In this document: positions 3,279 to 4,423 of the stretch, one piece after another
Layout of the letters: the number at the start of each line of letters is the position of its first letter
Position numbering within the stretch: position 1 is the first letter of the stretch
IMG/VR virus record: IMGVR_UViG_2693429642_000019
Source: a virus
Lineage: Monodnaviria; Loebvirae; Hofneiviricota; Faserviricetes; Tubulavirales
Reading direction: 5' to 3' (one strand)
Length of the DNA: 4,423 nt
Translations under genes and position numbers: made by a program
Notes under the pieces: generated by a model
The model's database searches: none
Seen by the model: the letters and a program-made list of their open reading frames with translations, nothing else
Told to the model about the DNA's origin: nothing

Positions 3279-4423
3279 TTGATTCACTTTATTATTCCGC
3301 TTCTGTTTTTGTTCTTTTCCTCGTTTTCTTTCGCTGAAGAGAAAGAAAATCCGGATGCACTTGTTCAGTGTGCAGGCCATTCATCCTGCAGGACAGATTA
3401 TTCGGACGCGGGGACGTCGATTAAATTAGCCAGGGCGGCCGGTCATCTTTTCTGTGGTTCGGGCAGTTATGACGCATGTTCCGGAATAATTCATTATTGT
3501 GGTGTGCCACTTTCAACGCCTGTTAATGCACCTTCGACTGTCGGGTCTTTTGTCCGTGCCCGGTGGTCAGCATATAAAGTCTGGGATTCAGACAAGCAAA
3601 AGTGGACAGCCTGCACCCTTGCTTTTCAGGGTGGTGAGGGGGATTTGACACCTGAATATAATAAGCCGCCAACTGACGAGATTTGTCTTTCTCGTCCGGT
3701 TCTTGATGGTATGACTTTTTCTGATGTTTATAAAGGTGATGACGGGACCCGTTATGTTAATGTGCAGGGGTGTATTTATGAGGCAACCGGTAATCCTCTT
3801 ATTTGTAATCCCGATGATGATACAGTTTGTACTGCCGACTGGAAACCAGTTGCTGTAGATCCTGCATTCTCCGATGGTAAGGAGGATGGCGGTAGCTCAG
3901 GTGGTGGCAGTTCCGGTGGTGGTAACCCAGGCGGCGGCAGTTCCGGTGGTGGTTCAGGTTCTGGCTCCGGTGGTTCATCCGGTAGCGGTGGCTCCGGCTC
4001 GGGTTCCGGCGGCTCATCCGGCAGTGGTGGTTCAGGTTCTGGCTCCGGTGGTTCATCCGGTAGCGGTGGCTCCGGCTCGGGTTCCGGCGGCTCATCCGGC
4101 AGTGGTGGTTCAGGTTCTGGCTCCGGTGGTTCATCCGGTAGCGGTGGCTCCGGCTCGGGCTCCGGCGGTTCATCCGGTAGCGGTAGTTCAGGTTCAGGAT
4201 CCGGTGGCTCATCCGGCGATGACAATGGCTGGCTTGATGGTATTTTGGGCTGGTTAAAAACAATATGGGTGTCAGTGAATGATTTAAATAATGCTTTTTC
4301 TGTTTCTCAGGCTGATATGAATAATGCATTAAATTCACTGGACAATGGTATTAAAGATATTAGTCAGAATATAGCTTCTTCTTTGCCTGATGGGGATTTC
4401 CCTTTAGGGGAGCTTTCGCATTA
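3279..4423 (+). CDS. pIII-like adsorption / minor coat protein, 3'-truncated by the window end (at least 381 codons); TTG start
   Basis: Open frame with no stop from 3222 to the window end, translated by hand. SD AGGAG (3266-3270) lies 8 nt before TTG 3279. Signal peptide MIHFIIPLLFLFFSSFSFA, then a Cys-rich N-terminal region (10 Cys), a roughly 109-aa Gly/Ser linker (3891-4217), and the beginning of a C-terminal domain (DDNGWLDGILGWLKTIW...). Not in the ORF track because of the non-ATG start and missing stop. Confidence 0.8.
   Translation, partial: MIHFIIPLLFLFFSSFSFAEEKENPDALVQCAGHSSCRTDYSDAGTSIKLARAAGHLFCGSGSYDACSGIIHYCGVPLSTPVNAPSTVGSFVRARWSAYKVWDSDKQKWTACTLAFQGGEGDLTPEYNKPPTDEICLSRPVLDGMTFSDVYKGDDGTRYVNVQGCIYEATGNPLICNPDDDTVCTADWKPVAVDPAFSDGKEDGGSSGGGSSGGGNPGGGSSGGGSGSGSGGSSGSGGSGSGSGGSSGSGGSGSGSGGSSGSGGSGSGSGGSSGSGGSGSGSGGSSGSGGSGSGSGGSSGSGSSGSGSGGSSGDDNGWLDGILGWLKTIWVSVNDLNNAFSVSQADMNNALNSLDNGIKDISQNIASSLPDGDFPLGELSH
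3951..4184. repeat. Three tandem copies of a 78-bp unit (two 39-bp half-units) encoding the repeated peptide GSGSGSGGSSGSG inside the pIII-like gene
   Basis: Unit GGTTCAGGTTCTGGCTCCGGTGGTTCATCCGGTAGCGGTGGCTCCGGCTCGGGTTCCGGCGGCTCATCCGGCAGTGGT starts at 3951, 4029 and 4107. Copies 1 and 2 are identical; copy 3 has a few synonymous differences. Confidence 0.85.

Follow-up and report, generated by a model that had tools for sequence, protein, structure and literature searches.

The filamentous phages Ff, IF1 and IKe use conjugative pili as their receptors. A general scheme for infection by way of pIII has been described for Ff (PMC10175506); in fd, the N2 domain is the partner of N1 and binds the primary receptor, and a mechanism by which fd pIII is locked has been set out (PMC10175506). 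Other filamentous phages reside in the chromosomes of their hosts. The UPphi901-group and CUS-1/YpfPhi prophages, dif-integrating elements of Enterobacterales, are chromosomal filamentous prophages of E. coli with tandem integration, as is the prophage analyzed here. In the UPphi901 group the number of Gly-rich repeats in gene III varies between strains, and the structural genes are reported to be ~70% identical to those of IKe (PMC7307601). For YpfPhi, which integrates at dif, the deletion of candidate pilus genes was without effect on susceptibility (PMC4266046), and for this reason a pilus receptor is not to be assumed for the dif-integrating group.

The locus compared with these systems is a DNA stretch of 4,423 bases (IMG/VR record IMGVR_UViG_2693429642_000019, the whole of which is called the window), and it represents the left part of an inovirus genome with its genes all on the plus strand. 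The open frame that begins at TTG 3279 and continues to the end of the window is very probably gene III (pIII) of a temperate inovirus integrated in E. coli chromosomes, with the layout and mechanism proposed below. The layout matches that of IKe almost to the residue. IKe gene III has a 19-residue signal peptide, a stem-loop terminator upstream and a non-ATG start, all of which recur in the window; its first domain measures ~100-105 residues and is similar in size to the one here; its TolA domain occupies precursor residues 127-196, compared with 132-195 in the window protein, at 44-47% identity; and a Gly-rich linker and a C-terminal anchor are common to both. The aligned IKe match begins at IKe residue 127 and at residues 122-132 here, while the TolA domain of If1 lies at residues 10-74. 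On the basis of this correspondence, the product would be expected to work like an IKe-type g3p. There are also differences, since IKe carries its own N-pilus-binding domain that has no homology to the first domain here, and the replication protein of the window is of the PF05840 / phrog_91 type and not part of the Ff/IKe-type gene II backbone of Lineavirus. Compared with the UPphi prophages, in which the likeness to IKe extends over the structural genes, it is the TolA domain alone that resembles IKe here, at 44%.

The pIII of Ff (M13/fd/f1) and the g3p of IF1 share with the window protein a homologous N1 with the same four cysteines, Gly-rich linkers and a C-terminal anchor motif. However, N1 comes first in Ff and IF1, which is the reverse of the order in the window protein; in addition, Ff has two GGGS/EGGGS linkers as opposed to a single long Gly/Ser linker, and M13 N2 is dissimilar. 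An earlier sequence-only reading had interpreted the N-terminal region by analogy with Ff. The N1 homology upholds that analogy, but the order of domains is IKe-like, with the receptor domain first, and not Ff-like. A lineage-specific receptor domain joined to a conserved TolA domain and a repeat-variable Gly linker is an expected inovirus component and involves no new mechanism. No counterpart was found for the first domain; variation of the linker repeat is already described for the UPphi prophages (PMC7307601).

An open frame at the gene III position

Translation from TTG 3279 gives 381 stop-free codons up to base 4421, running to the window end, and the other five frames of 3279-4423 contain 8-38 stops. 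The chance of 381 open codons is ~3e-8 at the given composition and ~5e-6 when the repeat is left out. The upstream in-frame stop is TAG 3219-3221, and the sole earlier in-frame start, GTG 3270, overlaps the Shine-Dalgarno sequence AGGAG (3266-3270, plus strand), which is separated by 8 nt from the TTG start (3279-3281). The choice of this start is shared by PGAP, which picks the same TTG in the 99.5% identical prophage of E. coli strain 100416 (locus L001, in which position 12279 corresponds to window 3279), and the TTG is kept in 16 of the 16 relatives examined. The sequence-only reading had pointed to this uninterrupted frame and to its absence from the ORF track. Both statements are correct, and the cause of the absence is mechanical in that ORFs running off the window are left out of the list. 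The product is labelled 'hypothetical protein' in every record found, and NCBIfam contains no family for it; its RefSeq full-length counterpart in L001 has 451 aa and a hydrophobic anchor at its end. In place of 'hypothetical', the product can now be named an inovirus attachment protein that carries a TolA-binding domain.

The genes that precede this frame, all on the plus strand, encode the replication endonuclease Rep (187-2187; PF05840 Phage_GPA, phrog_91), a protein at the pV position (2218-2643), two small membrane ORFs (2648-2788 and 2781-2951) and a pVIII-like major coat protein of 80 aa (2976-3218), the last of which is assigned from a weak PHROG match (phrog_17608) and the position of gene VIII in IKe. 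The gap between gene VIII and gene III holds a hairpin terminator (3234-3256, plus strand; AGCGCCC-TCCG-GGGCGCT) with six GC pairs among the seven pairs of its stem, followed by the T-run TTTTTT. Downstream of gene III in L001, the annotation and the PHROG matches phrog_1944, phrog_1675 and phrog_197 identify pVI-like, Zot/pI and GspD secretin genes. The frame is thereby placed after the major coat gene and ahead of those for pVI, pI (Zot) and secretin. The pI protein encoded by the prophage has a Zot domain.

Domain architecture of the product

The first 19 residues (3279-3335, plus strand) are a predicted signal peptide, MIHFIIPLLFLFFSSFSFA, after which the mature protein would begin with EEKEN. 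A rule-based assessment of hydropathy and of the -3/-1 positions gives an h-region with a Kyte-Doolittle mean of 2.4 and places cleavage after SFA, with Ser at -3 and Ala at -1, in agreement with the signal peptide claimed from sequence alone. The mature N-terminal region, counted over residues 20-203, contains ten cysteines (residues 31, 37, 59, 67, 74, 112, 136, 165, 176 and 184), which is the number previously given. That region had been described as a single divergent Cys-rich domain of ~185 aa; it is indeed Cys-rich, but it consists of two domains (residues 20-116 and 132-195), and the first alone is divergent.

The second domain, residues 132-195 (3672-3863, plus strand), contains four cysteines and is of the TolA-binding (N1) type. 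PF05357 (Phage_Coat_A) matches residues 126-171 with 36.2 bits compared with a cut-off of 20.8, and phmmer retrieves PDB entries for IKe (4eo1, E 3.9e-13), for IF1 N1 with TolA (2x9a, 5e-8) and for fd N1 (1fgp, 4e-7). All four N1 cysteine positions are aligned in the IKe, IF1 and fd matches, and the domain has a predicted N1 fold with two conserved disulfide positions, placed as in fd. Residues 132-195 are a conserved domain of the TolA-binding family, and strong sequence and predicted-fold homology makes the binding itself a probable property of the window protein.

A question raised by this arrangement is whether the two domains are locked into one unit, as they are in fd, such that the N-domain would cover the TolA site until receptor binding. 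A two-domain AF2 model with a pTM of 0.73 suggests a defined inter-domain arrangement, and the link between the domains, residues 117-131 (QGGEGDLTPEYNKPP; 3627-3671, plus strand), is short at 15 residues and 100% conserved compared with the relative L003. However, the same link residues have low pLDDT in the AF2 model (57-61), and in four relatives (L004, L005, L015 and L020) free recombination has joined the N-domain to a second domain of unrelated sequence, an arrangement that speaks against co-evolution of an interface. The N-terminal domains of IKe pIII are described as independent of each other. We consider a locked unit rather doubtful on balance.

Residues 204-313 (3888-4217, plus strand) constitute the long Gly/Ser linker that the sequence-only reading had noticed, with 60 Gly and 48 Ser among 110 residues, and they supply the flexible Gly-rich segment that separates the C domain from the receptor-binding part. 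The linker is encoded by a tandem repeat with a unit of 78 nt, present in 3.5 copies with a 95% match at nt 3946-4216. The Gly/Ser run varies between strains from 29 to at least 195 residues, and in L001 it is one unit shorter. The Gly/Ser repeat casts two long 'PEPEPE' shadow ORFs on the minus strand, at window 3776-4225 and 3799-4338. In L002 (2377-2940) and L007 (2695-3258), in which gene III carries a frameshift, PGAP takes an ORF of this kind (WP_062865521.1) for a real protein and calls the gene III fragment a pseudogene.

The C-terminal domain, to which virion capping and membrane anchoring would fall, starts where the earlier reading had located it. It opens at DDNGWLDGILGWL, is non-repetitive, and is present from residue 314 to residue 381 (4218-4423, plus strand), where it ends at the window edge. 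In the window's phage the anchor would lie beyond this edge, and the downstream sequence was consulted in the 99.5% identical L001 copy, which continues to residue 451 with the anchor SVLEYAIYMITMLRVFVIS (KD 1.54) followed by RRTLFEREVKL. A hydrophobic anchor and a basic tail are found in all complete relatives. The C domain has no sequence match in the PDB and no significant similarity to the C domains of IKe or M13; in these comparisons hhalign aligns the tail motif only, with probabilities of 3.8% and 2.1%, respectively. With a gene III position, a bona fide g3p N1 domain and an anchor in the near-identical full-length copy, the proposal of a pIII-like adsorption protein is supported.

Gene III is intact in 11 of the 11 relatives that can be read to the stop codon, for 12 complete copies in all. 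The window copy is probably intact as well, and would be ~477 aa long if its remainder matches the 99.5% relative; its intactness rests on that genome because the window ends before the stop codon. One could suppose that gene III is the decaying remnant of a defective prophage and has no current function, since the gene is frameshifted and called a pseudogene in L002 and L007 and its repeat is prone to slippage. Such decay is barely credible when set against the intact gene in every readable relative, a dN/dS of 0.3 in the N-domain, and an L001 prophage that has a complete gene set in identical tandem copies.

The mechanism that we propose for a functional gene III product is drawn from homology to the pIII proteins of Ff and IKe. 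The protein would be exported through Sec with cleavage of the signal peptide (residues 1-19), serving as a minor coat or 'pilot' protein; it would be anchored in the inner membrane, and a few copies would then cap the virion end together with pVI. The outermost N-domain would attach to a primary receptor on the cell surface, for which a retractile pilus or a fimbria is the likeliest candidate, after which the second domain (residues 132-195) would bind TolA. By position and analogy, the C domain and its anchor would drive uncoating and DNA entry. Linker length drifts as repeat units are added or lost. The position of the gene, the domain homology and the architecture are direct observations, from which we infer every binding step of this scheme.

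An orphan first domain and its alleles

The first domain, residues 20-116 (3336-3626, plus strand), contains six cysteines and is proposed here as the primary-receptor-binding module. An AF2 model built on 12 closely related sequences predicts it to be all-beta, with block pLDDT values of 67-89; a single-sequence AF2 run gave an unusable N-domain with pLDDT of ~30. No sequence match to residues 20-116 was found in Pfam, PHROG, NCBIfam or PDB, and no sequence or fold match to the IKe pilus-binding domain, to M13 N2 or to any PDB chain. When 5.8 billion and 1.84 billion proteins were searched, the credible N-domain homologs were limited to E. coli prophage proteins and one MAG contig, and scans of IMG/VR and metagenomes returned the same N-domain alleles again. 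The earlier reading had called the N-terminal region divergent, and no relatives of known function were among the matches to its first domain.

Several candidate relatives were considered and rejected. The hhalign probability was 0.2% for the IKe pilus-binding domain, 0.5% for M13 N2, and 0.1% for the N-domain as an internal duplicate of the TolA domain. A phmmer match with an E-value of 1.4e-6 connects the N-domain to P0007, a PF18998 (InlB B-repeat) protein, by way of a common C-x5-C...ACSG pattern; kinship to the InlB B-repeat was rejected with an hhalign probability of 0.75% and no Pfam match at E <= 10, and we treat the likeness as a resemblance in composition or motif. The MAG contig (L023, from GCA_030528155.1) is labelled Aerococcus and encodes a 52% identical N-domain. 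This label is probably the result of mis-binning, because the protein goes on to an N1-type start (TKEDCLARPVI). L023 also places the N-domain on a different inovirus backbone, one with a Phage_CRI-type replication protein, that is, an Ff/IKe-type gene II (Phage_CRI, G2P_X_C).

How does this domain vary among the prophages that carry it? Compared with L003, the N-domain is 77% identical at the nucleotide level and is bounded by a signal peptide that is 98% identical and a link that is 100% identical. The dS of 0.64 and dN/dS of 0.30 between the two point to old alleles that have been exchanged by recombination and held under purifying selection. Divergence is limited to three islands, set against relatives that are 97-100% identical in the remaining genes, and these islands correspond to the first domain, the 5' half of the pVIII gene, and the complete replacement of the second domain in some strains. 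Across all loci there are 18 distinct N-domain alleles, each exactly 105 aa up to a QGGEGDLT motif, and four core cysteines are invariant in all of them. Per-site entropy across these 18 unique alleles of equal length is highest in a hypervariable loop at residues 75-84 (3501-3530, plus strand; VPLSTPVNAP in the window), which is flanked by HYCG, with Tyr and Cys invariant and His and Gly nearly so, and by the conserved PSTVG at 85-89. Moreover, the relatives differ in how they combine N-domain allele, type of second domain, linker length and type of C domain.

A receptor-recognition cassette would be expected to show this pattern of old alleles that recombine on a fixed scaffold. For this reason, the N-domain fits an exchangeable specificity cassette and may represent the primary-receptor module. 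The sequence-only reading had assigned receptor specificity to the N-terminal part of the protein, and the cassette-like divergence lends that assignment indirect support.

The remaining two islands have features of their own. In L004 and L005, gene III residues ~132-205 consist of an unrelated 4-Cys sequence (NCLSRPVIKDFSYSLGDVVWVDTGNGQESQSLEINGCRYLIDFNECDDDGNCIA) in place of the IKe-like TolA domain, and this alternative second domain has no sequence relative in the PDB and no PF05357 match. The island in the 5' half of the pVIII gene (2970-3150) covers the signal peptide and the exposed N-terminus of the coat protein; nucleotide identity is ~85% within it and 98-100% in both flanks, with a dN/dS of ~0.65.

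The variability of the coat protein bears on another interpretation, in which the N-domain is a variable shield, a stabiliser or an antigenic decoy and entry proceeds by TolA alone or by way of another virion component. The exposed part of pVIII is also divergent, so immune or defence pressure could explain variability at the virion surface, and no receptor was found for YpfPhi, a phage of related lifestyle (PMC4266046). However, a scaffold of constant length with one hypervariable loop under purifying selection is typical of a binding module, and the partner domain of N1 binds the primary receptor in the pIII proteins that have been characterised. To our knowledge, this holds for every characterised pIII with an N1 domain, IKe included, and a shield or decoy function strikes us as quite improbable.

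Returning to the N-domain as a receptor-binding module, we tentatively entertain the possibility that residues 20-116 form a new fold that recognises something other than a conjugative pilus, and that its allele cassettes, together with the swappable second domain, set which E. coli lineages can be entered. If that were true, receptor candidates would include type IV pili, fimbriae encoded by the chromosome or by a virulence plasmid, and components of the outer membrane in diarrhoeagenic E. coli. With its hypervariable loop, the orphan N-domain is a compact target in the search for receptors and in efforts to engineer the host range of phage display.

The prophage and its hosts

A megablast search with the window as a whole gave no match among 50,697 phage records. 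The same type of search matched 40 complete E. coli chromosomes, the best of which, strain 100416, is 99.5% identical over the full length. The closest phage relatives of Rep are Vibrio VFJ, fs2 and CTXphi RstA, at ~30% identity. Scans of genome contigs with the pIII alignment and with Rep, using family-specific peptide patterns, gave no match. In strain 100416 (L001) the prophage is duplicated in tandem, with a period of 8739 nt, and lies immediately after hipA, at the dif region near hipBA. A dif-like hybrid site, GGTGCGCATAATGTGACACGCGTTATGTTGAAA, is present at the left junction (L001 8506-8535) and suggests XerCD/dif integration; an exact dif was not found in the L001 locus within 3 mismatches.

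The carriers are mostly human stool isolates from the Gambia, Pakistan, Bangladesh, Japan and the USA. Among them are three foodborne-outbreak strains of serotype O166:H15 that were reported to be without all standard diarrhoeagenic virulence markers (PMC12613895), and no standard virulence factor is known for these outbreak carriers (PMC12613895). The O166:H15 announcement was the one item that turned up in the literature on the pathotype or pili of the hosts. This prophage family is found in human diarrhoeal isolates, and to know the part of its pIII that would set host range offers a handle on the spread of the phage.

Between the Rep gene and a divergent 62-aa ORF, window positions 64-175 contain direct repeats, with two copies of GCAAAATTGCA(T/C)TTGTGCA as well as TTTGCACAATTGCAC. 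The 62-aa ORF is on the minus strand and ends at window position 39 (L001 8851-9039), and its protein has no match in Pfam. Together, these repeats and the ORF look like the operator and repressor region of a prophage.

A different inovirus prophage (L008, 6027-14545 in NZ_OZ547096) has a Rep and pV module that is 98.7% identical in nucleotides to the one here, alongside other structural genes, including a gene III of 573 aa. It is located between hcxB and ybiB, and a gene annotated as an 'IS110 family RNA-guided transposase' ends 3 nt before its Rep gene, a hint that the shared replication module is integrated there by another route.
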